DNA of 64,000 nt, from positions 61,816,001 through 61,880,000 of the forward strand of contig CM059432.1 of NCBI GenBank assembly GCA_030390025.1, in the 5' to 3' direction. Origin of the DNA: Squalus acanthias. Taxonomy: Eukaryota. The notes beneath the pieces were generated by a model. That model did not search any database and had not been told where the DNA came from. It was given only the letters and a program-made list of their open reading frames with translations. The translations under genes were made by a program, and so were the position numbers. This document shows positions 10,437 through 58,594 of the stretch, in pieces; the first letter of the stretch is position 1, and every line of letters begins with the position of its first letter.

Positions 10437-10533
10437 GCAGCGAAAAGATGAATTAGAACAAAGGATGTCGGCACTGCAAGAAAGCCGCCGAGAATTAATG
10501 GTTCAACTGGAAGGTCTGATGAAGTTACTGAAA
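10437..10533 (+). CDS. DTNA: Alpha-dystrobrevin exon: [32 protein letters not shown]
   Basis: tcacag acceptor, gtaagg donor, 97 nt, phase 2-0, in frame with the previous exon. Confidence 0.97.
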
Positions 10534-17107: not shown

Positions 17108-17273
17108 ACTCAGGGGGCAGGATCCCCTCGTTCTTCACCAAGTCACACTATTAGTCGATCTGTTCCTATTCCAATGCCTATCAGATCAACCTCCGCTTGC
17201 TCAACTCCGACCCATACACCTCAGGACTCGCTGACAGGGGTTGGAGGAGATGTACAGGAAGCATTTGCACAGA
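17108..17273 (+). CDS. DTNA: Alpha-dystrobrevin exon: [55 protein letters not shown]
   Basis: ttttcag acceptor, gtgagt donor, 166 nt, phase 0-1. Peptide characteristic of alpha-dystrobrevin-1. Confidence 0.97.
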
Positions 17274-27521: not shown

Positions 27522-27611
27522 GCTCCAGGCGAAATTTGAGAAATGACCTGTTAGTGGCAGCAGATTCCATTACAAACACAATGTCCTCTTTGGTGAAAGA
27601 GTTGAATTCGG
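27522..27611 (+). CDS. DTNA: Alpha-dystrobrevin exon: (S)[29 protein letters not shown]
   Basis: ctttgtag acceptor, gtaagt donor, 90 nt, phase 1-1. Confidence 0.97.
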
Positions 27612-33320: not shown

Positions 33321-33489
33321 AGGCCGGCAGTGAGACAGAGAGCAATGTGGATTCCGATATTGGTCGAGCTCATTTAGATGACATAGTTCCTTCACCAACT
33401 TCTGAGAAGGCCTTTCTAGCTCAGATCAATGCCAGAAATCCCAGCTATATCCACAGTGCTGCTGCAACAGGAACAATTCGAAGTGATAT
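33321..33489 (+). CDS. DTNA: Alpha-dystrobrevin exon: (E)AGSETESNVDSDIGRAHLDDIVPSPTSEKAFLAQINARNPSYIHSAAATGTIRSD
   Basis: ttcaacag acceptor, gtaagt donor, 169 nt, phase 1-2. PSPTSEKAFLAQI is alpha-dystrobrevin-1 tail sequence. Confidence 0.96.
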
Positions 33490-35037: not shown

Positions 35038-36126
35038 ATGGGGGCTCTACTTGCAGGCCCCCTCACGCTCGAGTATCTTTGGGAGAGGGAGTGGAGGCAG
35101 TGAAGAAGGGGAGAAGATGTTCGCAGAGGGAGGAGGAGGGGGGCCAGGAAGGTTCTTAGCTGGAGGCCTTGAGTCTTCAAAGAGCACTTCTCTTACCTCC
35201 ACTTAAGCGAGGAGCAGGCTCCGCTTCACCAAGGAGGTGGTCACAGAACTCTGCCACATCCTGCAACCAGACCTGCAGCCTCAGAGCAGGGCGACAACAG
35301 TTCTCCCAGTGGCCCTCAATATTTTCACCAGCGGATCCTTCCAGTCTGCAGCAGGAGACATAGCTGACATCTCCCAGTTTGCCGTCCATCGCTGCATCCA
35401 GGTCACAGAGGCTCTACTCCAGGAGAAGGGACTTCATTGTCTTCTCTCTGAACAGAGAGAAGCAGGACAAACGCGCACGTGGCTTTGCCAGGTTAGCGTG
35501 CTTCCCCATGGTGCAGGGAGCAATCGACTGCACCCATGTGACTTTGCGGGCACCGCACACCAATCCTTAGATGTTCCGTAACCGCAAAGGCTACTACTCA
35601 CTTAATGTGCTGTTGTGCGACCACGCCCAGCACATCATGATGATGAATGCCCGCTATCCTGGCAGCAGTCTTGATGCCTTCACCCCTGCGCCAGTCCGGT
35701 GTGCCAGCAATCTTCCAGCCACCACGTCAAACCCGAGGGTGGCTGCTCAGAGATAAGGGCTATATGCTCTGCACCTGCCTGATGACTCCCCTCTACAACC
35801 CCACCACTTGTGCCCAGCACTCATACGATGACAGCCATGCTGCCACCAGGAACATCATCGAGCAGACCATCGGGGTGCTCAAGCAACAGTTCCGCTGCCT
35901 TGACCACTCGGGAGGAGCCCTCCAGTACTCGCCGGTGTCCCATTTCATGGTTGTCTGCTGCATGCTCCACAACTTGACCATCATGAAGGCGCAGCCCTTG
36001 CCACCAGAGATTGCAGGACCACCTCAGGAGGAGTTGGAAGAGGAGAAGGGAGGGAAGAAGCGGGCAGCAAATCCCCGTTCTGGACGGACTGTCCGTGATT
36101 GCCTCATCAGACTCCAATTCCAGTAA
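35038..36126 (+). pseudogene. Harbinger DDE transposase (HARBI1-like), frameshifted
   Basis: FPMVQGAIDCTHV, FRNRKGYYSLNV, ARYPGS, WLLRDKGY, HAATRNIIEQTIGVLK and CCMLHN motifs across several frames. Confidence 0.93.
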
Positions 36127-38920: not shown

Positions 38921-39273
38921 GGCTTGCTCCAGAGTGAGAATGAGGTGTACAAAACACCTTCCCTTTATGTAGTGCAGAGAGCCTAGGCCAAACTTTATTG
39001 GCCATTAGACTGCACCAGATATTGTTACTCCCATCCCCCCACCCCCGTTGAGCACTAAGCCAATCAGCAGCACATTTAGCGCTGAGATCAGCGCTCCAAT
39101 CATGTTAATGAGCAGGCAGCACGAATTTTGTGTGCTTCCTGCACCACTTAGAAGAGGCGCTGGCAAATGGCACTGGCCTGTGACACTGCCCATTTTTGGG
39201 CCTTATCCAATTTCTAGGCCCTAATGTATTAAGAGACAAAGATGCCACTGTTTATGGTTTCTTTCTTTGTAAG

Positions 39274-39406
39274 TGTTACAGAAGATGGTGAATCATATGT
39301 CAGAACTGATGATGAAAGTTATGAAAATGAATCTGTCCATCAACTTGAGCATGAGTTGAAGCTGGAGGAATACCTGAAGCAAAAACTGCAGGATGAGAGC
39401 TATCAG
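39274..39406 (+). CDS. DTNA: Alpha-dystrobrevin exon with tyrosine-phosphorylation region: VTEDGESYVRTDDESYENESVHQLEHELKLEEYLKQKLQDESYQ
   Basis: ctttgtaag acceptor, gtgaga donor, 133 nt, phase 2-0. Homologous to mammalian ...DENYENDSV...EEYLKQKLQDEAYQ. Confidence 0.95.
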
Positions 39407-40264
39407 GTGAGATAGGACAATATGTACAATAATCTGCTGCATGCCACATTTTGTGGCAGCCAATTTGGGGAGAGAAAATTAGGTGGTGCTACTTGTATGC
39501 AGGACCTCGCTTAAATAGAATAATTATTAAAATAAGGTCACAAAATTTCAAGTTTGTGGGAAAGGTTCCACCCACAGCGTACACCTCGCCCATAAAAATA
39601 GGCACATTGATCTGGCCTAAATAAGTTGGCTTCTTAAAGGGAGGTGAAAGCTTCTGCTACTGGTTTGCATTTTGGATGGCATTTTGCTCCATGTGTTACT
39701 TGGTTTTCTGGCGTAGTCTGCTATTTTTACATTTTATGGGGGTGGGGGTTCCTGTTAATTTTTTGCTTCATTATTCACTGGTCACAGCTGGAGGAACCTG
39801 TTGCAGGAAATGAAGTGAAACACCTGCAAAACTTTACTGACAATGTGGAACTGACCAACAAAAATATCTTCACAATAGTGTAAATCAATCAAAAATGAAA
39901 TCAATCCCTCTTTACCAAATTCAGCTGTCCTTTGAACTGTTTACAAGTTCTAGTCAGCCAAAGTGAAGCTGCCACCCAATTTGTGTCTCCCAAATTTGAA
40001 GACTTGCAATGAATTTTGTTCTGGACTCTTGTCAGCCTGGTATTTACTGAAAAACCACTGATTTGTAGGAATAAAACAATGGCCCTGAATTTTCTCAGGC
40101 TTTCTGTCGCTGGGCTGCCTTGACTTTGCCAGAAGTGCAACGGGGTTTCCACCGCACTTTTGCTGAAGTTATGGCAGCAGAAAATCTGAAAATATTCAGG
40201 GCCAATGTTTACCTGAATTGCTTGAAAATTGAAAATCTTGGAATTTGATGTTTCTATTTATATA

Positions 40265-40560
40265 GGGGGCTAAATTTGGTTGATTTGCGCCTCCCATTAG
40301 CGCCCTAAGAGGGCACTAACGGGGTGCAAATCAACTAGCGCATGGGCGCAGCGGCCGCTAACGCCTCCCGCGAAATTCAGCAAATAAGGGGAGGAAGGCC
40401 TGCAGTACCGCGGCACATAGCGCCACGATATTGGCTTGCAGCGTCCCAAGAGGGACGCGGGGCGCTTCCAGTAGCGCCCCTCCTCCCCGTTGGGGCGCTA
40501 CCTGGGAAAATCGGCCGCGGGGGCGCTAACTTTTTCGGGGCGCTAAGGTTTATGGGAAGT
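40265..40560. mobile_element. Internally deleted Harbinger-type MITE (A/C-like ends)
   Basis: GGGGGCTAAATTTGGTTGATTTGCGCCTCCCATTAGCGCC start resembles the family A and C termini. Confidence 0.6.
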
Positions 40561-41034
40561 TAAAATTAACTGGAAGATCTATGTATTAGGGGCATGAAAT
40601 CTAATTCAGTCCTTCCATGTGGGAAAGCTATCCAAATTTGGCATCCATCCAACAAAATGTGTTTTGCCTGAAATCAGAAATTGTTAATGCTATTTAGAGT
40701 TATTTCTATAGTAGAATTTAAGTCTGGTTAAAATAGCACTGATAATTTGATATTTGGTACCGAGAGTGCTGCAATGCATCAGGTACCAGCCCCCAGTATT
40801 ATGGTGCACCATCTACATAATGCCTATGTGCTTTTTACACATATCCCAATGTGAAACCGCTCAGGCACTTGGAGCCTGTGCACCATTGTGCAGTAGGCTC
40901 ATTAAAGCCCCGATTTTCATTCAAATGAGGAGAAACCCCGTTAATGCACTGGACAGTGCTCTAGCTAAGTGCTTCAATTGAGTCCTTGCTCTGAAAGATA
41001 AATTGCTGTTTTTTTGTACATCTGTTTGCAAGTC

Positions 41035-41172
41035 ATTGGGGGTCAAGGGGTATGGCGAGAAAGCAGGAATGGGGTAATGAGGTAGCATGTTCAGCCATGA
41101 ACGCATTAAATGGCGGTACAGGCTCGAAGGACCGAATGGTCTACTCCTGCACCTATTTTCTATGTTTCTATT
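41035..41172 (+). mobile_element. CR1 extreme 3' end
   Basis: Similar to 26160-26297, with TTTCTATGTTTCTA tail. Confidence 0.8.
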
Positions 41173-41759
41173 TCCATCTTCACTGCCGGGACAGTAATCT
41201 GGTGGAGTGGACCACCTGACCACTGTAGAATCCACCTAATTTTTATTCCAATCAGGCAGGTTCTACAACAGACAGGCAATCCACTCCACCAGATTACTGC
41301 CGAAAGTGAAAATTACCCCCATTGATTCTCTGCTATATTCTGTTGTTGTTAAAAGGAAAGCAGTGAAAGTTCATGCGGCCTTCTATACAGATTCTTAAAG
41401 CTGTACTTTATCTGTTATCCGTGCCCGTGTGTCTAGTGAACGGCGTTAGGGTGCTGATTTGCGAGCAGGTATGGCTATGGACATTATCTATTTGCAGGTT
41501 CTGGAGGAGGAGGATCATAGGAGGCATGCACTTATCAGATGCAGATCTACATTTGCTCAATTAAAGCTGGTGTTACCTTTATTGTTAAAATAGATTGAAT
41601 GGGAAATGTGCTAAGCTGAAAGAAGGTTAACTTAACTTCATTTAAGTAAATTCTTATTCTACTTCCTATTTTGGTTTCAAATAATATCGCTCTGGGAGCA
41701 GAGGTGTAATATCAATATCCATGCTAGATACTTTAAGTTTCCTTTCAACTTATTTCCTG

Positions 41760-43787
41760 TCTGGACTGGCTGATCTGGCTGGACCACATAAAGCATTATC
41801 AGGTCCTGCTCTCGTTTGCCAAAATTGCTCACTATTCCAGAATCATTCTGGAATGCAAAGATAAACCCCAGCTTCTATTCTCCACTGCTAACCATCTTCT
41901 TAAACCCTTCTTCCCTGTCTCCTCCACCCTCGCCTCCGACAACAAGTATGAGGAGCTCATGGACTTCTTTGTCTCTAAGATTGAGACCATCCGATCAGCT
42001 GCCTCTGCTACTTCCCTTCCTTCCCCTAATCCACCGGGCCAAACTTCCTCTGAGGTTCCTCCCTGTCCTAGCCCTGAACTCACATCTTTCTCCAGATTCT
42101 CTCTGATTTCCCCTGATGACCTCTCCGAGCTCATCTTGCCCATGAGACCCACTTCCTGCTCCCTCGACCCTATTCCCATCAAACTGCTGACCACCCAACT
42201 TCCTTTTCTGGCTCCCATGTTAGCTGACATTCTTAACGGTTCTCTCTCCTCAGGTACTGTCCCCCTCTCCCTCAAATCTGCCGTCATCACCCCTCTCCTC
42301 AAAAAACAACCCTTGACCCCTCCGTCCTTGCAAACTACCACCCCATTTCCAACCTCCCTTTCCTCTCCAAAGTCCTTGAACGTGTTGTCGCCTCTCAAAT
42401 CCGTGCCCATCTTTCCCACAATTCCATGTTTGAATCCCCCAATCAGGTTTCCGCCCTCGCCACAATACCGAAACAGCTCTCATCAAAGTCACAAATGACA
42501 TACTTTGTGACTGTGACAAAGGTAAACTATCCCTCCTTGTCCTTCTTGACTTGTCTGCAACCTTTGACACGGTTGACCACTCCATCCTTCTCCAACGCCT
42601 CTCCACCGTCGTCCAGTTGGATGGGACTGCACTCGCCTGGTTCCATTCTTATCTATCTAATTGTAGCCATAGAATCACCTGCAACGGATTCTCTTCTCGC
42701 TCCCACATCGTTACCTCTGGTGTCCCCCAAGGATCTATCCTTGGCCCCCTCCTATTTCTCATCTACATGTTGCCCCTTGGCAACATCATCCGAAAACACA
42801 GCGTCAGTTTCCACATGTACGCTGACGACACCCAGCTCTACCTCACCACCATTTCTCTCGATCCCTCCACGGTCTCTAAATTGTCAGATTGCTTGTCCGA
42901 CATCCAGTTCTGGATGAGCAGAAATTTTCTCCAATTAAATATTGGGAAGACCGAAGTCATTGTTTTCGGTCCCCGCCACAAACTCCGTTCCCGAGCCACT
43001 GACTCCATCCCTTTCCCTAACATCTGTCTGAAGCTGAACTACACTGTTCGCAACCTTGGTGTCATATTTGACCCTGAAATGAGCTTCCGACCACATATCC
43101 GCAGCACAACTGAGACCGCCTATTTCCACCGCCGTAACATCGCCCGTCTCTGCACCTGCTTCAGCTCATCCGCAGCTGAAACCCTCATCCATGCCTTTGT
43201 TACCTCTAGACTTGACTATTCCAACGCACTCCTGGCTGGCCTCCCACATTCTACCCTATGTAAACTTGAGGTCATCCAAAACTCGGCTGCCCATGTCCTA
43301 ACTCACACCAAGTCCCGTTCACCCATCACCACTGTGCTCGCTGACCTACACTGGCTCCCGGTTAAGCAACACCTCAATTTCAAAATTCTCATCCTTGTTT
43401 TCAAATCTGTCTATGGCCTCACCCCTCCCTATCTCTGTAATCTCATTCAGCCCCACAACCCCCCCGAGATATCTGCGCTCCTCTAATTCTGCCCTCTTGA
43501 GCATCCCTGATTATAATCGCTCAACCATTGGTGGCCGTGCCTTCTGTTGCCTAGGCCCTAAGCTCTGGAATTCCCTCCTTAAACCTCTCCGCCTCTCTAC
43601 CTCTCTTTCCTCCTTTAAGACGCTCCTTAAAACCTACCTCTTTGACCAAGTTTTTGGTCGCCTACACAAATTTCTCCTTACGTGGCTCGGTGTCAAATGT
43701 TTTGTCTTATAACACTCCTGTGAAGCACCTTGGGATGTTTTACTATGTTAAAGGCGCTATATAAATACAAGTTGTTGTTGTTGTTGT
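41760..43787 (+). mobile_element. L2-clade LINE, 5'-truncated, RT domain largely intact
   Basis: ORF 42551-43486 with FDTVDH, GVPQGSILGP, YADDTQLY, SRLDYSN and LHWLP. Tail AAAGGCGCTATATAAATACAAG(TTG)n. A short tail-only copy lies at about 44270-44410. Confidence 0.95.
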
Positions 43788-43995
43788 CTTACTGCCTCAC
43801 CGTGTATGCAATGTATGGAGCTTACTACTAAATACTATACTATATATTCTTTTTCCTTTTCACCACATATCTATTTGAAGTTTCACATTTTATTTGCACA
43901 TCACATATTTAAAAACACCTTTATTATTTTGAGTAGTCACATTACTTACTCTTTGGGCTGTCTCTCTTTCTCCTTATTTTATCTGCTACTTACAG

Positions 43996-44013
43996 GTCAG
44001 TTTGCAGGGGTGA
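43996..44013 (+). CDS. DTNA: Alpha-dystrobrevin-1 stop-containing exon VSLQG* (whole exon 43996-44034, 39 nt)
   Basis: cttacag acceptor, GTC AGT TTG CAG GGG TGA, gtaagt donor at 44035. VSLQG is the human alpha-DB1 C-terminus. Confidence 0.92.
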   Translation, partial: VSLQG

Positions 44014-44564
44014 ACAGACTCTTCTGTGTCCTGCGTAAGTAATTTTTATCTATCATTGGCTCTCACTACTGGCTTTCTAATGCAGATTTTCTAAGAGCAG
44101 TACTATTTCTGGTAATACACCATGCCAATTTTGCTGAAAAACTACAGTATGAACAGTGTGTTACACAGAATAGATCATCCCATCTCAAGTATTTTATTTT
44201 AATCCTTATTGCTTCCCAGCACCCTCCTTGCAATTATATTGTCATTGTTGATCACTGAGGGATGAAAGCAAGCTTTTGGCCACCTGTCCTAATATCTCCT
44301 TATGTGACTCGGTGTCAAATTTTGTTTGATAACGCCCCTGTGAAGCACCTTGGGACATTTTACTATGTTAAAGGCACTATATAATTGCAAGTTGCTGTTG
44401 TTGTTGTTGAACGTGCCCAATCTATATGTATCTTCATGGATCGTATTGAGTCTGTTCCTGGTCACAAGTTGTAGTTGAATGGTGCAGGAAAGGGCGCCTG
44501 TCCAACTAGTTTATTGCCAGTCGCTCAGGAAAAAAAAAATTACCAAGGAAGCTTGAGTGTAAGG

Positions 44565-46200
44565 CTTGGATTTTCCTTTCAATTACCATCCATTTTCAGG
44601 CAGGTTTGCGGTGCTAAACTGAGCAAAATTGGGCAGTAAGGCCTATCACCTCAAATCTGCCCCCAAAAAATTGCATAGGAATTTTCCTCTTCAAAATCTA
44701 CAAATTCTCCTTTAACGCCCAACCAGATGTATTTAATGTGGTCGGGTGGGTATGAGCAGCATTCCTATTGCATCTTCCTCAACTTCTACCCCTAACCTGA
44801 CCCTAATTGTTACTGCCACTTCAAAAATTACATTATAAGCAGCACAGCAGTGTCCTAGAGGCAGGATACTACATTGAGCAGGCCATTTTGTTTGCTGGAA
44901 CTAAATATTGGTGTTACTTTGTCTGCATATCAATTTTATCTGTTTGGTGATCTGGAGGTTCTGTCGGCACTTTTCCTGCCATATGTAGTTAGCTCTACAG
45001 AAAATACTGCTTTGGATTGGGGACATGGATTTTCCCATGGGAAGGAGGATATAGATATGGAAAAGGCTAGGCTGGAGGCACTTAAAATGAGGCAACACAG
45101 GAGTCATTTGTTTCCTACATGTAGATACCCACTCAACAGGGTTTACAGACCAAAAAGGTCTTACTTGGATTTCTCTACCGTCACAGCCTCAGAAGGTTGC
45201 AATTCACTCCTAGAGGCAAATGAAAAGGTATGTCAGCTGCTGGCTGAAAACCAGCAGCCCACTTCCACCAGGAGAAGAGCATTATATGTACCAGTCAGTG
45301 GTACTGCTGCTTTGAATTTCTTTGTAACTGGATTCTTCCAAGCAGCATCTGATGACCTTTGCCATATTAGTCAGGCTGCAGCTTACCATTGCAGAAAGAA
45401 AGCCACTGATGCTCTCTACCAGTGGGCTACACAGTTTATTTCCTTCTCAATAGAACCACATAAACAAAGCGACTGAGCTATCCAATTTTACAGACTGCTA
45501 GGGTTCCCACAGCTGCAAGAAGCAATCATAGAATTATAGAATCATAGAAGATAGGAGCAGGAGTAGGCCATTCGGCCCCTCGAGCCTGCTCCGCCATTCA
45601 ATGAGATCATGGCTGATCATCCAAATTCAGTACCCTGTCCCTGCTTTCTCCCCATATCCCTTGATCCCTTTAGCCTTAAGAAATATATCCAACTCCTTCT
45701 TGAATCTGTTTAATGAATTGGCCTCTACTGCCTTCTGTGGTAGAGAATTCCACAGGTTCACCACTCTCTGGGTGAAGAAATTCCTCCTCATTTCTGTCCT
45801 AAATGGCTTACTCCTTATCCTTAGACTGTGACCCCTAGTTCTGGACTCCCCGACCATCGGGAACATCCTTCCTGCATCTAGTTTGTCCTGTCCTGTCAGA
45901 ATTTTATAAGTTTCGATGAGATCCCCTCTCATTCTTCTAAACTCCAGCGAGTATAAGCCCAATCGACCCAATCTCTTTTCATACGTCATTCCTGCCATCC
46001 CAAGTATCAGCCTTGTGAATCTTCGCTGAACTCCTTCCATGGCAAGAACATCCTTCCTCAGATGAAAACATGTGGCATTTAACGCCCCATATCAGAACCC
46101 CCTCAATTTTCTTCAAGACAAAATTCTACATTACCGTTGCTATCATCCAACCCCAAAAAGTCTATACAATAATGAATTCAAAACTCTGTGTGGTCAAGCC
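44565..46200 (+). mobile_element. Decayed Harbinger transposase remnant interrupted by a CR1
   Basis: ORF 44874-45476 contains RVYRPKRSYLDFS and ALNFFVTGFFQAASDDLCHISQAA. Coding similarity resumes after 46064. Ends are uncertain. Confidence 0.65.
45525..46063 (-). mobile_element. CR1 3' fragment, young subfamily
   Basis: ORF 45627-46040 is nearly identical to the C-terminus of ORF 25284-26201; (ATTCTATG)-type tail. Confidence 0.94.
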
Positions 46201-46572
46201 TTGTTTACTTTTCAGAACAACATTCACCAAAAGGTGGTAACAAATCCAGACATCCCATCTATAACTACTTCTTCCCACCAGGTCTACCCTTTTTGACAGT
46301 TAACTTACTTCTTCTAGCTCCTATTGCTTCTACGAGGTGCTCCCTGCTAAATTCGTGGGGGCCTTTTTTAGATATCCTGGGCGAACGCATAAAACAAGCA
46401 TTAGGCCGGTTAATTATGTAAATTAGGGGGCTAATGCTTGTTGAAGAACGTTTGTTGAAGAACCCCATCAAGAAATTTGTTACCGATGAGTGGTCCAGGC
46501 ATCGAGCCTGCCCTGCTCAGGATTCTTTAGCAGCCCCTGTGGCTGCTAACGAGAGACAAGTTAATAAATGAT

Positions 46573-47249
46573 GGGGGATAAATTCTGTGGTGCCTCCTTT
46601 GGGGCGCTAACTTTGTCGAGGCGCTACTTTTAGTGCCCCGAAAAGGTTAGCGCCCTGCGCCGTAAATTCAGTGGTAGCGCCCCAAGCAGGAGGCTACTGG
46701 AAGCGCACCCCCTCCTTTCTGGGGTGCTACAAGTGAATATCGCAGTGCTATGTGCAACAGCGCCACGCACGTCGGCATGTAGCACCGCGATATTGCAGGA
46801 CTCCCTCCCCTGATTAAAGGGGAGGGGCCTAGCGCTGCGCGCACCGGGGCCCTGCTGGACCACCAGCGAAAGCTCAGCGATCGCGGCCGGCACCCCGAAT
46901 AAAAAAGGGGAAGGGGGCAGGTGCTGGCAGGCGACCAAAAATAAATGGCCACCCGACACCTGCCCATTAAATTGCGCCGCCGCGGCTGCAAAAACGGCAC
47001 CCTGACCCTGTTGGACATATCGTCCGGTGATAGGTCAGGGGGCGCAACTTAAGTTTGCAGCCGGGGCGCTGTGCACAGCGATGACGCCATCGCCGGAGGC
47101 ACAGCGCCGCAGGTCGCTACCGGTTACCGCCGCCACTAACCTCCCACTGAATTTCACGGGAGGCATCAGTGGCGCCACGCCCGGGCACTAGGGGCTTTGT
47201 GTCCCATTAGCACCCCCCCGGAGGCACAAAGCAACCCAATTTTTCCCTC
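46573..47249. mobile_element. MITE family C, inverted relative to 18279-19017
   Basis: GGGGGATAAATT / AATTTTTCCCTC ends, flanks GAT/AAT, colinear reverse complement. Confidence 0.88.
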
Positions 47250-47517
47250 AATGTTCTTGAAAAAAACTCTTCCTGTGGAGCCAGAAGGAGTAGGAGTGCT
47301 TCCCCGACTCCACAGGCATCGTGATCCCACCCCCATTGCCCACCCCAGACCAAAATCTATCCCATGATCTAATGAAAAAGCTCCTTTAAACGGGTTAGTG
47401 GGAAGATGCACACTATGATTCAGTATGGAGTCACACGGTCTAGAAAATTACCAAGTTTGATCTCTGATTTGTGTTGAGTTAGCTGAGCTCATTGGGAATG
47501 CTACAGTTGGATTCTAT

Positions 47518-47702
47518 GGGGGTGAATTGATAGTCAAGAAAAGCGCAAAACAGGTAATAGTGAATCGGCATCTCATTTTACACCACGCCCAACGTTCTTT
47601 TTCATTAAAGTCAATGGAAATGGAAATCGGGCATGGTGTAAAACAGACTGTCGATTCACTATTGCCCACTTCGTGCTTTTGCCAAAGACCAATTTCACCC
47701 GC
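47518..47702. mobile_element. Small Harbinger-type MITE nested in an old SINE
   Basis: GGGGGTGAATTG / CAATTTCACCCGC ends with TAT on both flanks. Confidence 0.6.
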
Positions 47703-47784
47703 TATGTGCTCAGGCTAGGAAGGGGAAAAATTGTCTCGGGTTTCTACTATTGATTGCTACCCGGTAAGGGATGCACAACATAAA

Positions 47785-50232
47785 CTCACAGGTAATGGCA
47801 GAGAAATGGCAGAAATATTGAATAGTTACTTTGCCTCAGGGAGACTAACAAGGTGGGCATGAGATTAGAAGAAGTGATCAAAAAAGATAAAAAGACATTT
47901 AAGATAGAACGAAGGATGATAATTGATAAATTAATCGAACTTAGAGAGGATAAAACCCCTAGTCCGGATGAATTACATCCGCGCATATTAAAAGAAGTTA
48001 GGGAAGAGATAGCAGAAATTCATTAGAAAAGAAAATGCTGCCAGATGACTGGCGAACAGCTAATGTGATTCCTATATATAAAAAAAGAAATAGAACAAGT
48101 CCAGGGAACTATAGACCAGTTAGCTTAATGTCAGTAGTAGGAAAGATGATGGAATCTTTACTCAAGATATAATAGAAAAACATCCAGAAACTTAAAATAT
48201 AGTAAACAATAGTCAGCACAGATTTCAAAAGGGCTTGACCAACCTTATTGAATTCTTTGAAGAAGTAACGGAAAGAGTAGACAAGGGTAATGCGGTAGAT
48301 GTAATGGCCCAGAAATTCGTCCGAATACGGGAGAGTACGCACTGTGTACTCACCCATATTCGGTCCCGAAGTGCCGGTTTCCTGCATGCACTGCGCATGC
48401 GCGGAAAACCGGCACTTCCGATATTGCGAAGGGGGCGGTTCCTAAGTGAACCGCGTGCGCACTACAGGCTGTGCGCACGCAGCACACTTAGTTTTTTTTT
48501 CAGGTTTGAACGCGAAGGTAAGTGTTGAAGATTTTACACATGAAAAAAGCAGGCGTAAGACCCCCTTTTAACAAGGTAAGTAGTTAATTAAGTATTTTAA
48601 ATTTTTTTCAACAGGTTTATCTTTTTTAGAGACTTTAAAGAAAGGTAAGTTTATTTTTATAACTTTTAAAAAGAATTTAAATTTTTTCAAAAATTTAAAT
48701 TTTTGTTTAAAGTGGTTAATTTATTTAACTATAGTTATTTTATTAATGTGATGGTTTTTTTTTAATTTAATTGAGGTTTAGCTGTTCTTTTGGGGGCAAT
48801 TTGTATTCATAGCTTTGACAGCTCTTCCTGTCAAAACTATGAATGAAAGATGGTGTGCTGCCATTGGCTCTAACTGGTTCACGTGATCCCAGAGGTCGCA
48901 TCGAACTAACTGCGCCTCTGGGACACGCACACACTGCGCGCCGGCACCAGGGAGAGGCCCAGGAACTGAAGTTCGTGTGGGCCAAAACCATAAAGGCAGG
49001 CGCGGAGTGCGATATCGCGGGGGATCCTTACCCCCGCGGCAACCATTGAAGTCCAATTTCTGGGCCAATATATTTGGATTTTAAAAAGGACTTCGATACA
49101 CTACCGCATTGTAGACTAATGACTAAAGCCAGAGCATGTGGAGTCAGGGGACAAGTAGCAGAATGGATAACGAGCTGGCTATAAAACAGTAAACAGAGAG
49201 TAGGGATTAAAGCTAGTTACTCAGACTGGCAAAAGGTGGGAAGTGGTGTTCCAGAAGGATCGGTGCTGGGGGGACCACTGTTGTTCACAATTTCTATAAA
49301 CAATTTGGACTCGGGAATCGTAAATACAATTTCAAAATTAACGGATGACACCAAATTGAGGGGCAGAGTTAGTACTGAGGAAGACTGCAACAAAATACAA
49401 GAAGACATTAATAAACGGTAAATGGCAAATTCATTTCAATATAGGTAAGTGTGAGGGGGTGCATTTTGGTAGGAAGAATAAGGAGGACACATACTCCTTT
49501 AGAAAATTAGAATCTAAATGGGATAGAGGAGCAAAGGGATCTAGGAGTACAAATACACAAATCACTAAAAGTGACGCAGGTTAATAAGGCCATAAAAAAA
49601 GCAAACCAAGCACTCATGTTATTTTCTAGAGGGATAGAATTGAAAAGCAGAGAAGTTATATTAAACTTGTTATGGAACCTTGGTTAGACCACACTTACAG
49701 GACTTTACACAGTTCTGGTCTCCATATTATAAAAAGGATATAGAGGCACTGGAGAAGGTGTGAAAAAGAATTACAAGGGTGATACGAGATCTGAGAAGTT
49801 ATACTTATCAGGAAAGGATGAACCGGCTGGATCACTATTCTCTAGAAAAGAAAAGGCTGAGGGTGACCTGATCGAGGGCTTTAAGATTGTGAAAGGGTTT
49901 GATAGAGTACACGTAGGGAAGATGTTTCCACTTGTGGGGGAGACCAAAACTAGAGGCCATAAATATAAGATAGTCACTTAACATCCAATAGGGAATTCAG
50001 AAGAAACTTCTTTATGCAGAGAGTGGTTAGAATATAGAACTTGCAACCATGAGGAGTAATTAAGATGAATAGCATAGATGCATTTAAGGAGAAGCTAGAT
50101 AAACACATGAGGGAGAAAGGAATAGAAGGATATTCTGATAGAGATATATGAAGAAGGGTGGGAAGAGGCACATGTGGAGCACAAACACCAGCATGGATCA
50201 GCTGGGCCCAATGGCTGTACATTCTATGTAAT
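47785..50232 (+). mobile_element. Decayed CR1 LINE interrupted by a family B MITE
   Basis: MAEILNSYFAS, NYRPVSL, TNLIEFFEEVT, GVPEGSVLG and DDTKL motifs; tail ATTCTATGTAAT. Confidence 0.9.
48306..49066. mobile_element. MITE family B, inverted relative to 32445-33208
   Basis: TIR GGCCCAGAAATT / AATTTCTGGGCC and TSD AAT. Removing it restores the CR1 codons GAT GTA ATA TAT TTG GAT TTT (DVIYLDF). Confidence 0.95.
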
Positions 50233-50269
50233 CCTTGTTGGAAAGTGCATATGTGAGGAATATAGGATT

Positions 50270-53040
50270 AGGACAGAATCACGAGATGGCGCTAAAACGC
50301 CGTTCAGAGCTCTACCGTCAGCTGATGGTGGTTCCAGCGCCACACGCCATATCCATCTTGCCAGTAGCGCTGCCGGTAAACTTGATCGCCAGGTCCATCG
50401 CAATCATGGAGATCATTACGTCAGTGAATGTGCAACGCTCACTTTATGCCCAATCTCCCAACTTCATTTTGGCCATTGAACTTACCGGCTGGAGAAAGCA
50501 ACAACAGGTTGAGGTGGTGTGCAGCAGCAGGAAGCCTTTACCGGGATCCTCACCAATCACTCGCACCTGACAGGATTTTGAAGTTTAAGTGGCTGTGTGC
50601 TAGTTCCTGCTACTGCAGTTGACCTCGCCCTCCAGGATCTATGGCAGAGAGAGCGAAGGCAGCGAGAAAGACAGGAGCATGTGCGCAGAGGGAGGAGGAG
50701 GGCTTTCAGGGCTCTCAACAGGAGGCCTTACCCTCTAAGAGTCTTCCGACAGCACTTCTCCTACCTTCAATTAAACAAGGAGCAGTGTATTAGGAGGCTT
50801 CACTTCACCAAGGAGGTGGTCCCAGAACTCTGCCACCTCCTGCAACTAGACCTCCAGCCTCAGACCAGGGTGACCACAGCTCTCCCAGTGGCAGTCAAGG
50901 TGACCATGGCCCTCAATTTCTTCGCCAGTGGATCCTTCCAGTCTGCAGCAGGAGACACAGCTAACATCACCGTATAACAATCCTGAGATCTTCCGTAACC
51001 GCAAAGCCTACCACTCACTTAATGTGCAGTTGGTGTGCGACCACACACAGCGAATCCTCAATGTCAATGCCCGCTATCCTGGCAGCAGCCACGATGCCTT
51101 CATCCTGCGCCAGACCGGTGTGCCAGCACTCTTCCAGCCACCTCATCAAGCTCGTGGGTGGCTGCTCAGAGACAAGGGCTATCCGCTGTATACCTGGCTC
51201 ATGACTCCCCTCCGCAACCCCAACACTCGTGCCCAACACTCATATAATGAGAGCCATGCTGCCACCAGGAACATCATCGAGCTGACCATCGGCTTACTGA
51301 AGCAACGGTTCTGCTCCCTTGACCGCTCGGGAGGAGCCCTCCAGTACTCGCCAGAGCTGGTGTACCATCTCGTGGTGGTCTGCTGCATGCTCCACAACGT
51401 GGCCATCATGAGGGCGCAGCCCTTGCCACCAGGGATTGTGGGACCACCTCAGGAGGAGGATGAGGGAGAGGAGGACGAGGATAAGGAGGGAAAGGAACAA
51501 GAGGGAGGGATGAGGCAGCCAATCGGCCTTCTGGACGGGCGGTCCGTGACTGGCTCATCAGACTCCGATTCGAATGAATGAAACCCCAGATCCCCGTTGC
51601 TCACTACATCCCCATCATACCATCCCTGTCGCAAGCCATATCACAGCATCCTCCTGGGTGCAAAGCTGAAATGAGAGACACCACAAAAGATTCCAAACAC
51701 AATTAATAAATTTATCTAAACACATATCACACATATTACATCAACACTATTAACTAATCACCCTTGTGCAATCCCTTAGTACCTGTCCATGTGCCTTTTC
51801 CTACTCTAGTGCTCCTACGCAGTGCGCCCCCAGTGGCTGTAGCATGGCTGGTGGAAGGCTGCTGAGTTTCCGTGCGGGAGTCTTCAGATAGCCTTGCAGG
51901 ACGATCTCAACCAGCTCTGGACCTAGAAGGCCCGGCTGTGGACTGCACCACCTCGGCATGTGCGGCAGCAGTCTGGGCTAGCTGAATGACAGGCAGCGGC
52001 AAGGGCAATGGCGGAGTGGCAGTGGTGGGAGCAGGAACGCTCTCATCCTAAGAGAGGACAGCAGGTTCCTGCCCACTGCCACTCCCCCCGGGCGGCACCT
52101 CAGCATTCCTAGCAATCTGTTGGAGCACAGATTGCTCACCTGCTGCGACACCGTGAAAGCCCCGGTCGACGATGGTAGACCCAGCCATGATGGCAGCAGT
52201 CAGAGCTTGGGTGGCATCACGCTGAGACTACATGAGAGCAGCCAGAGATTGGATGCCACCAAGCAGAGACTGCATGAGAGCAGTCTGAGCCCAGCTGCAG
52301 CACTAAGAGGTTGGGTCGCTTCCGCCTGTGCTGCAATGGAAGCTGCAATATTGCTCATCATGCGCGTCATCACGTCTGGGTCGCCAACACCTCTCTGGGA
52401 GTGTACCATCATTTGCAGACTGGAAATGATGGGCTCCATGCTCTGCACAGAGCCTTGTGCAATGTTGGAGGCGGACTGCTCCACGCTCCTTGCCATTGCC
52501 GAGAGGCTCTCTGGCAGCCTTGCCATTGCACCTATCATTTCGGTGTGCATGCCCATCACCCTTCTTATAAAGGCCTCCCCATCAAGGTCCTCATCTGAGT
52601 CCTGTGCAGCAGAACTCGCAGTGCGAACTCGCTGGCCCCCGAGCTACCCTTTCCCCCTGGCCTTGCTGCAGCCCACTCGTGCCCGGTGCCTCACTCTGTG
52701 CAGATCCCGCTACTACACTAGCCTCTAAAGAACGTGTAGTGCCAGTATCTAAGCTGGTGTCTGTGAGTGACGGATGCAGTGACGCGGTGTCTTCTTCCTC
52801 CTCCTTCTCCTCTTCTCCCCCCTCACTCGCTGCGGTGCCCTCAGGGACAGGCTCTTCAGGTGCTTGCTCATTATCTGAAAGCAGAAAGGCACAAGAGTCG
52901 GGTTCTGGTGAGGGGAGGGGAACAGGAAGGCAGAAATACATGCATACAGCATAAGTAACTTGAAAGTGACAAAAGATTGTGGGCTGAGGGGGAAGTGGGA
53001 TGTGAGAAGAAAGAGTAGGGATGAACATACCGTGCAAAAA
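50270..53040. mobile_element. Second Harbinger transposon, right end lost
   Basis: Transposase remnant on + and last exon plus intron of the Myb gene on - (GTATGT donor at 53030, CAG acceptor at 52875). Colinear with 34579-39220. Confidence 0.88.
50597..51581 (+). pseudogene. Harbinger DDE transposase with an internal deletion near 50970
   Basis: ALNFFASGSFQ, NRKAYHSLNVQLVCD, YPGSSHDAFIL, WLLRDKGYP and CCMLHN are present; the GAIDCTH segment is missing. Confidence 0.92.
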
Positions 53041-53361
53041 ATTAAATCATATTCACAATAAGACCTCCTGTGCAGTGTCATTAAATAACTACTTTCTCAG
53101 ACTGCGTTTTGCAAATGTTGTTTTTATTGTATTGTTTTTAGTCTGGTACTGACCTTTTAAAGTAGAATGCTGTGATTGCTTTTCCCCAAATAATTAATGA
53201 GCTGTTGTTTAGGGCTTTTGTTTAAATTATTGTTTTAGCAAATTTTTCAAATGTTAATTTGTGAGTTTTTTCCTTTCAAATATTCTAATTGCTTTTTGAC
53301 GCTGACTGTCCAGTTTTATTCTTGCTCTATATATAATTTAACCATTTTGTCCACTCATCAG

Positions 53362-53505
53362 GCTAATTACAGTCAAACTGATGATGAGAGTTACGTGAGA
53401 ACTGACGATGATGAAAGCTGCATACGGACAGATGATGAAGAAGGTCTAACTCCTGGCTTCACTGAAGAATGGAATGAACATATGAAGCGTCTTATGACAA
53501 AATAA
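53362..53505 (+). CDS. DTNA: Coding start of the DTNA terminal exon, alternative C-terminus ANYSQTDDESYVRTDDDESCIRTDDEEGLTPGFTEEWNEHMKRLMTK*
   Basis: ttttgtccactcatcag acceptor, phase 0 compatible with the donor at 39406, repeats ESYVRTDD from the upstream exon with synonymous codon changes, followed by a UTR-like region. Confidence 0.75.
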   Translation, partial: ANYSQTDDESYVRTDDDESCIRTDDEEGLTPGFTEEWNEHMKRLMTK

Positions 53506-55645
53506 GAATTTTATAAGTAGTGTGCGGACTATAGCACAGTCATTTTAAAAGTTTCTAGTTAGATGTGTTGACAAACATTTCTTTTACTAAAAGCTGGGTT
53601 TATCAGCATCTTCTTTATATGGCTCATCTGAGAACAGAATTCAGGAGAACACAACTGCAGTTATCACCAAACTGAACATGTTTGGTGTTGCTATTTCAAG
53701 AGATGGCAGTATTAATATTAAAAAAGATAGTTCTTCACATTTGTGATCAATATATTCTGTTTACACTTCTAATATTGATACACTTTACGTTTGGTTTCTA
53801 GGTGAACTGTGCAGTACTTTGACAAAACAGTTACATATTTTTTCAACTGTGATAAACCTACTATTTTGGTGAAATGCACTTAAAAATCAGATATTAAGGC
53901 ACTACATATGAGTATTTATTCAAAATTATAACTACCCATAAACTACTAATTCTCAGCATTTTTTAATAAAATGCACAGATCTGTAAAATATAAGAACTGT
54001 GAACTGTGTCAAGGACACTCTTAGCTAATTCTGTTCTCGTATTTTGAACCGTAGGTGCCAAAAACAAATACAGTAACAAAGTTGAACTTAGATCATTTAA
54101 TTCATTTTTGTGATTAATACAATGGGTTAAGCAATATTTTAAACAAGCATGTCCATTGCTAACTTAAAAAAGTAAACTATATTTTTGTTTTGTTTTCTGT
54201 TTCTATAATTTTGAGGCCTTCAGCTTGGACATACTGGTATATACACATTACTTGATGTGAATTGGAATTTTTTATGTTTGAAATGCGTATTACCTTAGTT
54301 GGCCATCTGTGTAGTGTGCATATTGTGAGAAAAGAATAGTTTTATTAAATAATCTATTAGAGAATTGCAAATGTTGTAAAGGAAGCAGCAAGTGAGAAGT
54401 CAGGGTTTGAGAGGTTTTGTGGCTTCAATCTGATTAATCCACAGGTAACACATGCTAATGGTTGCAGACACAGTCCTCCAAAGTACTACTTAATTTAAAG
54501 TATTAATGGTCAGTACAAAACAGCTCATTCAACTCCATGTGAATTCTCACAGAAACTATTCTTACAAAAAGCTGAATTGATCTACGGACTTATCTTTTTT
54601 GTAATAGTTATTCCTGCCTATAATTTACTAAAAATTCTGTTATAGAAGCTTTCTATAAAAGATGTCATATGTAAGTTTACCATTTATTACTTTTTAGTTA
54701 CAGTATAGTTAAATAAAAAGGTTTGATAATGACACGACAGTGACACGCTGAATAATCTGTAAACCTCGCACAACATATGTATTATTGATAGCTGAAGAAT
54801 TGCTAAAAAAGATCTAAAATTCTTACGTGGTAACCACACAAATATTTACCTTGAAAGCGTGTAGATATCTTGACAGTAAAATAACATTAGAAATTGGTGT
54901 GATTTAATTGATATAATCAGAGTAAAATCCGAAGAGAAATATGTTAATAATTATTGATTGAAGTCTAATAGTTTATCTAAAGAGAATGGATGTACATTAC
55001 AGATAAAAAGAAAAACACGTGAATGCTGGAAGATTTCAGATAAAGTTTAGAGTGTTATAAGAGAGAGGCTTGGCATGTTTCAGAGTTAACCTGCACAAGA
55101 CTGTGGCCTTCACTGTGAAACAATCTGTACTCTGTTAGTGCATGAAGTGATAAATTGTCTAGTTTTGTTGCATAGTCCTATATCTTTTATTTATTTTGAT
55201 TGACTTTTCCCAGCTACATAGGTTCATTAATGTAGACACATACTGTATATAATTAAAGTCTGTGTTGCTGAATTTAGAATGGATAAATTCAGCAAAATGG
55301 CTGTGAATAACAACCATTTTCTTACTGTGTCCAAAATAATGGACATTTAATTTCCACCAAAAATGTATGACTACACCATGTATGAACTTACTACAACAAC
55401 TAATATATTTAATGTCTCCAAAAGGAGGAGCAGTAACTTTGGAAGCACTAAAGGCTCAATGTAATACACTGTTAATGTAATAAAACTACTGATCTATGTT
55501 TTGTATTGTTAAGTATTGTATCCATACGTACATGTGTTGGAACGAGCTGGGGACTTGCCATGTTTTGAGATTGTTCAAGTATTTAACTGTGTGTCTGTAT
55601 TTTGGAATGGAATATTTCTTCATTAAAGAGAGAATTTTTAAAAAG
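53506..55645 (+). other. DTNA: Probable DTNA 3' UTR
   Basis: About 2.1 kb AT-rich and free of recognisable repeats. AATAAA at 53965 and 54712; ATTAAA at 55622. Confidence 0.65.
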
Positions 55646-57143: not shown

Positions 57144-58594
57144 TCCCAGAGTCGCAATGCGGATTCCGCCCACTAAGGGGCACAATGGACATGATCTTCA
57201 CCGCGCGTCAATTACAAGAGAAATGCAGGGAACAGCACCAACCGCTGTACATGGCCTTCTTTGATCTCACAAAGGCCTTCAACACCATCAACCGTGAGGG
57301 ATTATGGAGTGTCCTCCTCAAATTCGGCTGCCCTCAAAAGTTTGTCACCATCCTCCGCCTGCTTCACGACGACATGCAAGCCGTGATCCTGACCAACGGT
57401 TCCACCACAGACCCAATTCACGTACGGACCGGGGTCAAGCAAGGCTGTGTCATCGCACCAACGTTCTTCTCGATCTTCCTTGCTGCAATGCTCCATCTCA
57501 CCCTCAGTTAGCTCCCTGCTGGAGTGGAGCTAATTTACAGAACAAATGGGAAACTGTTCAACCTCCATCGCCTCCAGTCCAGATCCAAGGTCGTCCAATC
57601 CTCTGTCGTCAAATTACAGTATGCAGACGACGCTTGCGTCTGCGCTCACTCGGAGGTCGAACTCCAAACCATCGTCAACACCTTCACCGAAGCGTACGAG
57701 AGCATAGGCCTTACACTAAACATCCGTAAGACAAAAGTCCTCTACCAACCTGCTCCCGCCACACAGTACTGCCCCCCGATTATCAAAATCCACTACGAGG
57801 CCTTGGACAATGTGGACCACTTTCCATACCTCGGGAGCCTACAAGGGCAGACGTCGATGACGAAGTCCAACACCGCCTTCAATGTGCCAGTGCAGCCTTC
57901 GGTCACCTGAGGAAGAGAGTGTTTGAAGACCAGGACCTCAAACCCAGCACTAAGCTCATGGTCTACAGAGCAGCAGTGATACCCACCCTACTGTGCCTCA
58001 GAGACATGGACCATGTACAGCAGGGACCTCAAAGCACTGGAGAGGTACCACCAACGCTGCCTCCGCAAGATCCTGCAAATCCATTGGCAGGATAGGCGTA
58101 CCAACGTCTGTGCTTTCGCTCAGGCCAACATCCCCAGCATCGAAACTTTGACCACACTCGATCAGCTCTGATGGACGGGTCACATTGTCCGCATGCCTGA
58201 AACGAGACTCCCAAAACAAGCGCTCTACTCGGAGTCCGACACGGCAAGAGAGCCCCAGGTGGGCAGAGGAAACGCTTCAAGGACACCCTCAAAGCCTCCT
58301 TGAAAAAGTGCAACATTCCCACTGACACCTGGGAATCCCTGGCCCAAGACCACACAAAGTGGAGGAGAAGCATCTGGGAAGGTGCCGAACACCTCGAGTC
58401 TCTTCGCTGGGAGCAAGCGCAAGGAGCGCACGTCAACCCAAGCACCCCACCCACTCGCCCCTTCAACCACCGTCTGCCCCACAAGTGACAGAGACTGTAG
58501 GTCCCACATTGGACTCATCAGTCACCTGAGAACTCATTTTTAATGAGGAAGCAAGTCATTCTCGGTTCTGAGGGACTGCCTAAGAAGAAGAAAG
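57144..58594 (+). mobile_element. RTE-clade LINE, 5'-truncated
   Basis: PESQCGFRP, DMIFTARQLQEKCREQ, FDLTKAF, GVKQGCVIAP, QYADD and FPYLGS motifs; (AAG)n tail. Confidence 0.95.

Follow-up and report, generated by a model that had tools for sequence, protein, structure and literature searches.

The window analysed here is a stretch of 64,000 nucleotides of the Squalus acanthias genome (contig CM059432.1, positions 61,816,001 to 61,880,000 of the forward strand), and its plus strand contains the 3' exons of the gene for alpha-dystrobrevin (DTNA), which acts as a scaffold in muscle and at synapses. The dystrobrevin C-terminal coiled-coil exons (first three rows of Table 1) were present and matched shark DTNA, and both alpha markers, the tyrosine exon and the VSLQG end, were found, with 100% identity to Heterodontus DTNA and 95% to the Torpedo 87K protein. 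When the tyrosine exon, in which Torpedo Y685, Y693 and Y710 have their counterparts, was used as a query, 2637 proteins matched, and the named ones among the 120 matches listed were all of the DTNA type. N-terminal EF-hand and ZZ domains were present in the full-length homologues (Pfam), and the window begins 3' of them.

Table 1. Features of the 3' end of DTNA in the window
Feature	Positions	Strand	Remarks
DTNA coiled-coil exon (QRKDELEQ...MKLLK)	10437..10533	+	phase 2 in, 0 out
DTNA exon 3' of the coiled coil (TQGAGSPRS...QEAFAQ)	17108..17273	+	phase 0 in, 1 out; matches shark DTNA P0010
DTNA exon RRNLRNDLL...KELNS	27522..27611	+	phase 1 in, 1 out
DTNA exon AGSETES...TIRSD	33321..33489	+	phase 1 in, 2 out
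Tyrosine exon, 133 nt, donor CAG/GTGAGA	39274..39406	+	phase 2 in, 0 out; both ends set by the run X4 contig
Stop cassette exon VSLQG*, 39 nt	43996..44034	+	TGA at 44011-44013; donor TGC/GTAAGT
Start of last exon: acidic tail of 47 aa with TDD units, one Tyr and one Cys that are invariant, and an EW...MKR helix at its end	53362..53505	+	
Shared 3'UTR	53506..55000	+	run contigs reach at least 55000, the end of the stretch examined

AATAAA motifs were located in or after the shared 3'UTR at 53965, 54712, 55479 and 56215. Decayed stretches of LINE-type reverse transcriptase were seen in the introns and downstream of the gene (23195-25843, 42254-43436 and 57508-58064), and an open stretch of 100 codons (35818-36122) resembles a fragment of a Harbinger/HARBI1-type transposase.

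Splicing of the stop cassette and the last exon

The last exon opens with ANYSQTDDESYVRTDDDESCIRTDDEEGLTPGFTEEWNEHMKRLMTK followed by TAA (53362-53505), behind a pyrimidine-rich acceptor (CATCAG). The initial annotation had described this as a 47-codon frame in the phase left by the tyrosine exon, with the word ESYVRTDD identical in both exons and five of its eight codons different, and both descriptions held; the tyrosine exon ends in phase 0, as the tail frame needs. A shared word of at least eight residues was not reached in any of 2000 shuffles, the longest obtained by chance having six, and the alignment score of the tyrosine exon with the tail was attained in 3 of 5000. The tail is single-copy, because its DNA and its peptide each matched only this place in the 3.7-Gb genome. 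An open frame of 47 codons is not rare by itself, 2 of 150 stretches within the following 2 kb being as long, so that the case for the tail rests on splicing and conservation.

Splicing was followed in contigs from sequencing runs, of which 23 were listed and seven examined; their RNA status was guessed, the runs having no record as RNA and neither tissue nor read counts, and they were treated as transcript evidence because spliced joints were present. One contig of run X4 matched 39274-39401 and continued at 53357-53649, agreeing with the window at every letter, which joins 39406 to 53362 across 13.9 kb, the five letters ATCAG fitting either side of the joint. Among the contig pieces listed, this skip junction was directly visible in one of the four runs compared with the region 39000-55000. 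The contigs of X1, X2 and X3 began at 53357 with 942, 293 and 639 further letters upstream, respectively, and these starts fit the skip form because the cassette end, TGC, would not extend the match. The inclusion form (39406>43996-44034>53362) was represented by one contig of run X18 that covered the cassette exactly (region 43860-44260), its loose ends being identical to the last letters of exon 39274-39406 on one side and to the first letters of the exon at 53362 on the other. Inclusion was thus found in one of the four runs of this second set; X1, X7 and X5 had no contig there, which is not proof of absence. Two assembly-derived skate-type proteins carried one ending each, long in P0087 and short in P0180. 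Very abundant short repeats occupy about 43300-43800, 44280-44400 and 45550-45950 and make up most of the matching run contigs.

At the RNA level, transcripts that include the cassette reach their stop after VSLQG and have the tail within the 3'UTR, and those that skip it gain the 47 codons; the longer isoform proposed earlier from skipping of the VSLQG* exon is thus borne out by the 39406>53362 junction. The cassette is an internal exon of 39 nt with its own donor, and its TGA lies 21 nt 5' of that donor. Premature stops less than 50-55 nt from the last junction usually escape nonsense-mediated decay, so that the short mRNA, with its stop 21 nt before that junction, should escape it and both forms should yield protein. 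The surroundings of the cassette were scanned for words of RBFOX, QKI, MBNL, NOVA, PTB and CELF; sites for RBFOX and QKI were not found, the others had ordinary counts (no control), and no regulator is therefore proposed. Isoform switching with longer DTNA isoforms after hatching has been described in chicken, the exon not being named in the available part of the report (PMC13521219).

Two variants of the last junction were observed in other species. In Heterodontus isoform X3 (P0124) the last exon is entered 20 nt earlier, in another frame, and that acceptor is not available in the window, where AA and not AG precedes the corresponding position (53342-53361). Several turtle proteins (P0170 and others) have an extra Gln at the junction (EAYQ-Q-ASC), which suggests a tandem CAG-CAG acceptor.

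The long ending in other vertebrates

The shark tail matched 166 of 202 candidate proteins, and the 120 matches listed were dystrobrevin alpha isoforms together with one hypothetical and one unnamed protein. Among these best 120 of 166, identity to the tail was 89-98% in about 20 cartilaginous fishes, the closest matches (98%) being shark proteins, and 72-76% in two bichirs, gar and bowfin; the long-form proteins listed share the 39406>53362-type junction. With the turtle tail as query 447 of 451 candidates matched, the best 120 of them from turtles, alligator and birds, and other searches added a duck and two pigeons with the long tail. Teleost, amphibian, squamate and mammalian proteins were not met in the best 120 of 166 and the best 120 of 447 matches, and their absence is not shown because only these were listed. 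The 120 matches listed for the tyrosine exon included short VSLQG forms of the same sharks, Torpedo 87K, and a turtle with the long tail. Both endings were annotated within single species in sharks, gar and turtles. We collected 346 vertebrate proteins (272 long, 69 short and five other), numbers that the choice of queries biases and that give no frequency.

An alignment of 40 rows, 39 picked as one per taxon and the window, had 11 invariant positions of 47, including S-Y, S-C-x-R-T-D and E-W. From sharks to birds the tail was 64-98% identical, its frame was kept and its length changed only by whole codons, a pattern that points to selection on the protein, as had been proposed from the synonymous differences in the repeated word. 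The peptide search also answered whether the isoform was already annotated: it is present among RefSeq/UniRef predictions from many fishes and sauropsids, as entries named 'dystrobrevin alpha isoform X..' with the same junction and tail in sharks, rays, chimaera, bichirs, gar, bowfin, turtles, alligator and birds. These entries are automated models, and no described function or evolutionary reading was found with them. The long isoform is confirmed as a real alternative C-terminus of alpha-dystrobrevin, conserved and already automatically annotated.

The frame could instead be plain 3'UTR that is not translated, with the long isoform a product of noisy splicing or of faulty annotation; in favour of this are the automated origin of the RefSeq X isoforms, the chance frequency of such open frames given above and the short end of the cloned Torpedo cDNA. 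Against it stand the contig that joins the two exons, the preservation of residues and frame in about 40 taxa with indels in whole codons only, and a homologous end that is constitutive in Priapulus (see below), so that its probability is next to negligible.

We found no description of the long isoform or of an invertebrate tyrosine tail in the literature searched, which covers few subscription papers and not the first descriptions of the Torpedo and mouse isoforms. In the available portions of PMC1790709, PMC2796648, PMC2173352 and PMC8585010 the long isoform is not among the isoforms given, and those of PMC13521219, PMC10293626 and PMC6987317 describe neither it nor an invertebrate tyrosine tail, the word 'tyrosine' being absent from the portion of PMC10293626. 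In chick, turtle or shark tissue, dystrobrevin may have an ending that is missing from the cDNAs of Torpedo and mouse.

Dystrobrevin ends in invertebrates and the age of the tail

A search of 1.84 billion proteins by representatives, with the tail as query, gave five hits: two pigeons, two unrelated repeat proteins and a dystrobrevin alpha-like protein of Priapulus caudatus (P0349; 62% identity over 37-41 residues, E 6.5e-6). The two repeat proteins (P0350 and P0351, E <0.001) were rejected as tail homologues. The same end, DDDSYARTDDDESYIRTDDEEGG...EWEDAMKRWINR, was found in all four annotated isoforms of the Priapulus gene (XP_014672024-27; P0349, P0352-P0354), and the tail is thus constitutive there. 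It is homologous to that of the shark, with Tyr/TDD units and a W...MKR helix, and it differs in having Tyr at the place of the vertebrate Cys and more units upstream, six in all. An Atlas search with the turtle tail gave no usable match.

Scanning metagenomes with the tyrosine exon yielded three loci (L002-L004) among 549 pattern matches, each with tandem TDD-ESY units. L004 contains dystrobrevin coiled-coil exons (E 8e-23) that are identical to those of shark, gar and turtle at 48 of 70 positions, these three vertebrates being identical among themselves at 70 of 70; L004 would thus be a non-vertebrate dystrobrevin. L003 is 97% identical to L004 in their overlap, and the two represent one gene. 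The last exon of L003 has 47 codons and a stop and ends GESYIRTDD...WEESMKRWINR; against a profile built from the vertebrate tails this end scored 18.5 bits, which none of 2000 shuffles attained, and its helix part, which was absent from the query that had found L003, was reached by 0 of 3000 shuffles. The L003/L004 gene shares four intron phases with the window (0, 1, 2 and 0, for the introns that follow the coiled coil and KEL[NS]S and for those that precede the tyrosine exon and the last exon, in this order), the shark having one more intron in between. In the 218-nt last intron of L003 no VSLQG-like exon was opened by any of the 11 internal AG sites.

The third locus, L002, belongs to another gene and looks like a further, apparently non-vertebrate, dystrobrevin fragment; a single exon of it (549-708) holds four tyrosine units. 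Its upstream exon (L002:202-334) resembles the shark AFLAQINARN stretch and its phase-0 donor at 708 suggests a further last exon. In L004 (3674-3817), a short unit that takes in the beginning of the coiled-coil exon is present three times in tandem, which may be a local duplication or an assembly artefact.

Invertebrate dystrobrevins carry the motif in their last two exons and end in the same tail, so that of the two vertebrate endings VSLQG is likely the younger. Comparison of these sequences suggests that it is probably the ancestral bilaterian C-terminus of dystrobrevin; support for this ancestry comes from one named invertebrate genus, Priapulus, and the unplaced L002-L004, with the order of events taken by parsimony and no rooted tree. 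The distribution of the tail in invertebrates may be patchy, as none of the five hits of the representatives search was a named insect, nematode or mollusc dystrobrevin or a cnidarian protein. The initial annotation had spoken of a second C-terminus duplicating the upstream motif, and this is probably backwards, because invertebrates have the motif in both exons and end in the tail. Jin et al. (2007), in the available part of their survey (PMC1790709), treated the tyrosine-rich tail as alpha-specific and its absence as the presumed ancestral state, a view that the Priapulus and L003 tails probably contradict. The tail, with its seemingly undescribed end helix, would then trace to the protostome-deuterostome ancestor, contrary to that survey as far as it is available. 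The isoform itself is already in automated annotation; the value of these results lies in this probable reversal of the history of the tail and in a conserved motif of putative function.

A later duplication of the upstream tyrosine motif, specific to vertebrates or fishes and recruited from 3'UTR, would be in keeping with the identical 8-mer in the two exons, with a tail profile that scores the upstream exon above all 2000 shuffles and with the alpha-specific gain described in the part of the Jin et al. survey cited above. Yet the alignment score of the shark tail is 116 with the Priapulus end and 49 with the upstream exon of the same gene, the two shark exons show no relationship in their second halves, where 2353 of 5000 shuffles did equally well, and the motif is already in both exons of invertebrates, which makes the repeat between exons real but older than vertebrates; such a later duplication is thus very improbable, P0349 and L003 having largely refuted it. 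Duplication of the whole tyrosine exon was also considered as an origin of the tail and rejected, because no alignment could be made over the second halves and because the tyrosine exon is entered in phase 2 and the tail in phase 0.

Convergence of acidic low-complexity repeats, by which the vertebrate and invertebrate tails would be independent, could draw on the shortness and acidity of the repeats and on the E values below 0.001 reached by the two unrelated proteins mentioned above. The match nevertheless lies at the very C-terminus of a dystrobrevin and spans the non-repetitive, W-containing helix, of which the last 16 residues alone, compared between shark and Priapulus, were matched by 2 of 5000 shuffles (0 of 3000 for L003), and the four intron phases are shared; we consider convergence most improbable. 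Vertebrate contamination of P0349 and L003 is argued against by their coiled coils, which are identical to those of vertebrates at 48-49 of 70 positions (P0349 and the L003/L004 gene).

A second dystrobrevin gene of this genome, probably beta, was located on contig C9 (61966519-61966614; L007, with L008-L019), where the peptide of the coiled-coil exon is identical to that of 10437-10533. A profile search of the 120 kb downstream found the next two exons and neither a tyrosine exon nor a tail, and the same profile found both the tyrosine exon and the tail in the window. This paralogue may have lost the tail.

Proposed function and likeness to dystrophin exon 78

The explanation that we favour, with a probability of about 0.8, is that the gene has two spliced endings, VSLQG by way of the 39-nt stop exon and the 47-residue acidic tail by skipping it, and that the tail likely goes back to the C-terminus of the bilaterian ancestor and likely serves as a docking arm, which would carry one further phosphorylatable Tyr and a predicted amphipathic end helix. 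Torpedo 87K (P0149, UniRef P83954; 726 aa) ends in VSLQG, and the tyrosine of its ESYVRTDD is Y685. Torpedo 87K, or alpha-dystrobrevin-1, comes from the same gene, with a tyrosine exon 95% identical to the present one; its canonical end, VSLQG after three tyrosines, is found in the short isoform only, and in the long isoform VSLQG gives way to 47 residues, among them the extra conserved Tyr, a Cys unit and the W-containing helix.

The available text of Grady et al. (2003; PMC2173352) gives Torpedo Y685, Y693 and Y710 as the major if not sole phosphosites, shows that mice need the alpha-dystrobrevin tyrosine tail if the neuromuscular junction is to be stable, and reports that a triple Phe mutant rescues synapses poorly. 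The mouse sites are numbered Y705, Y713 and Y730 in the available part of PMC8585010, and published binding studies, as far as they are available, centre on mouse Y713 and Y730. The earlier expectation that the tail brings extra tyrosine sites was correct for one conserved Tyr and too generous in making them several, for only one TDD junction has Tyr and the next one has Cys. The tail has two Tyr: that of ANYSQ is kept in only 55% of the 40 rows, and that of ESYVR, whose context is identical to that of Torpedo Y685, is invariant (40/40). By analogy with Y685 the latter may be phosphorylated, which would add a docking site at the dystrophin complex; we hold this phosphotyrosine step with confidence somewhat better than even. 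Most likely the arm would provide the dystrophin complex with one tyrosine docking site under kinase control and one site of helix binding, and the terminal W-x-x-x-[MV]-[KRQ]-[RH] helix would bind a conserved partner.

The third unit, ESCIRT, has its Cys (53419-53421) in all 40 vertebrate rows and Tyr there in Priapulus and L003, and it likely records an early loss of tyrosine in vertebrates with a new constraint. Cys and Tyr are one base change apart at this codon. The unit with Cys equals the unit with Tyr in conservation, so that phosphotyrosine cannot be the whole function of the tail. T-D-D-[DE] fits the consensus of casein kinase 2 (CK2). It is possible, if rather unlikely, that the isoform and its age are as we propose and that the selected function lies in acidic linear motifs or in CK2 threonine sites (T-x-x-D/E), with the end helix as main binder, a reading compatible with the docking arm. 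It is favoured by the third unit, with its invariant S-C-x-R-T-D, having outlived the loss of its Tyr, by the fit of the T-D-D-[DE] of the tail units to that consensus, and by the conservation of E-W and the helix from Priapulus to birds. It is opposed by the invariance of the second-unit Tyr in all 40 rows within an 8-mer identical to a mapped Torpedo phosphosite, and by the Tyr present in nearly all invertebrate units (six units in Priapulus and three in L002).

The end helix occupies residues 722-737 in an AlphaFold model of P0010 that is poor (mean pLDDT 37.8), and the acidic stretch of the tail, with its three TDD units, is predicted to be without regular structure. The hydrophobic moment of the helix was 0.44-0.69 in six sequences, a modest value that 1-5% of shuffles reach. 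A PDB search with the tail returned chance ankyrin-repeat matches only. Deep conservation makes the tail a candidate binding motif in the dystrophin complex.

Dystrophin itself offers a parallel. According to the available part of Jin et al. (2007; PMC1790709), exon 78 is the penultimate exon of vertebrate dystrophin, its skipping reveals an ancestral helical end of invertebrate type, the exon also has an in-frame stop in bony fishes, and the switch is developmentally timed, with a donor that has a pyrimidine at +3. Like exon 78, the penultimate cassette of DTNA is alternatively spliced, both skipping and inclusion having been seen; its skipping opens a conserved frame in the 3'UTR of the last exon, and the end so revealed is homologous to an invertebrate C-terminus, constitutive in the four Priapulus isoforms and present in L003. 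Unlike exon 78, the cassette has a donor, TGC/GTAAGT, without a pyrimidine at +3, of which only the exonic side departs from the consensus. Dystrophin is a different gene, and homology of the two tails, which were not compared, was not seen. By this analogy the VSLQG exon is probably a vertebrate off-switch, which the jawed-vertebrate ancestor would have inserted as a stop cassette. Non-mammalian vertebrates would then toggle the tail by a 39-nt exon, a second design of the exon 78 type in dystrophin's own partner.

More tentatively, and with somewhat less than an even chance of being right in all its parts, the history can be extended as follows. The tyrosine-repeat tail and W...MKR helix would be the ancestral bilaterian C-terminus, more than 550 million years old; the jawed-vertebrate stop cassette would toggle it in parallel with dystrophin exon 78, possibly under common regulation; mammals would have overwritten the ending, perhaps by a frame shift of one base; and the three mouse tyrosines would be the remnant of a larger phospho-array. 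Chain V of PDB entry 9c3c (818 aa), which we take to be a mammalian dystrobrevin, is the same protein up to EAYQ and then has a long alternative ending of 46 residues (773-818) whose opening residues are LHVSTE and to which the acidic tail has no match up to E 10. The first three of these residues agree with the start of the amniote tail read one base on, a weak hint, as 94 of 3000 random words fit too. In the human transcript NM_001198938.1, a Trp698 nonsense variant is placed in 'exon 22' in the available part of PMC6987317.
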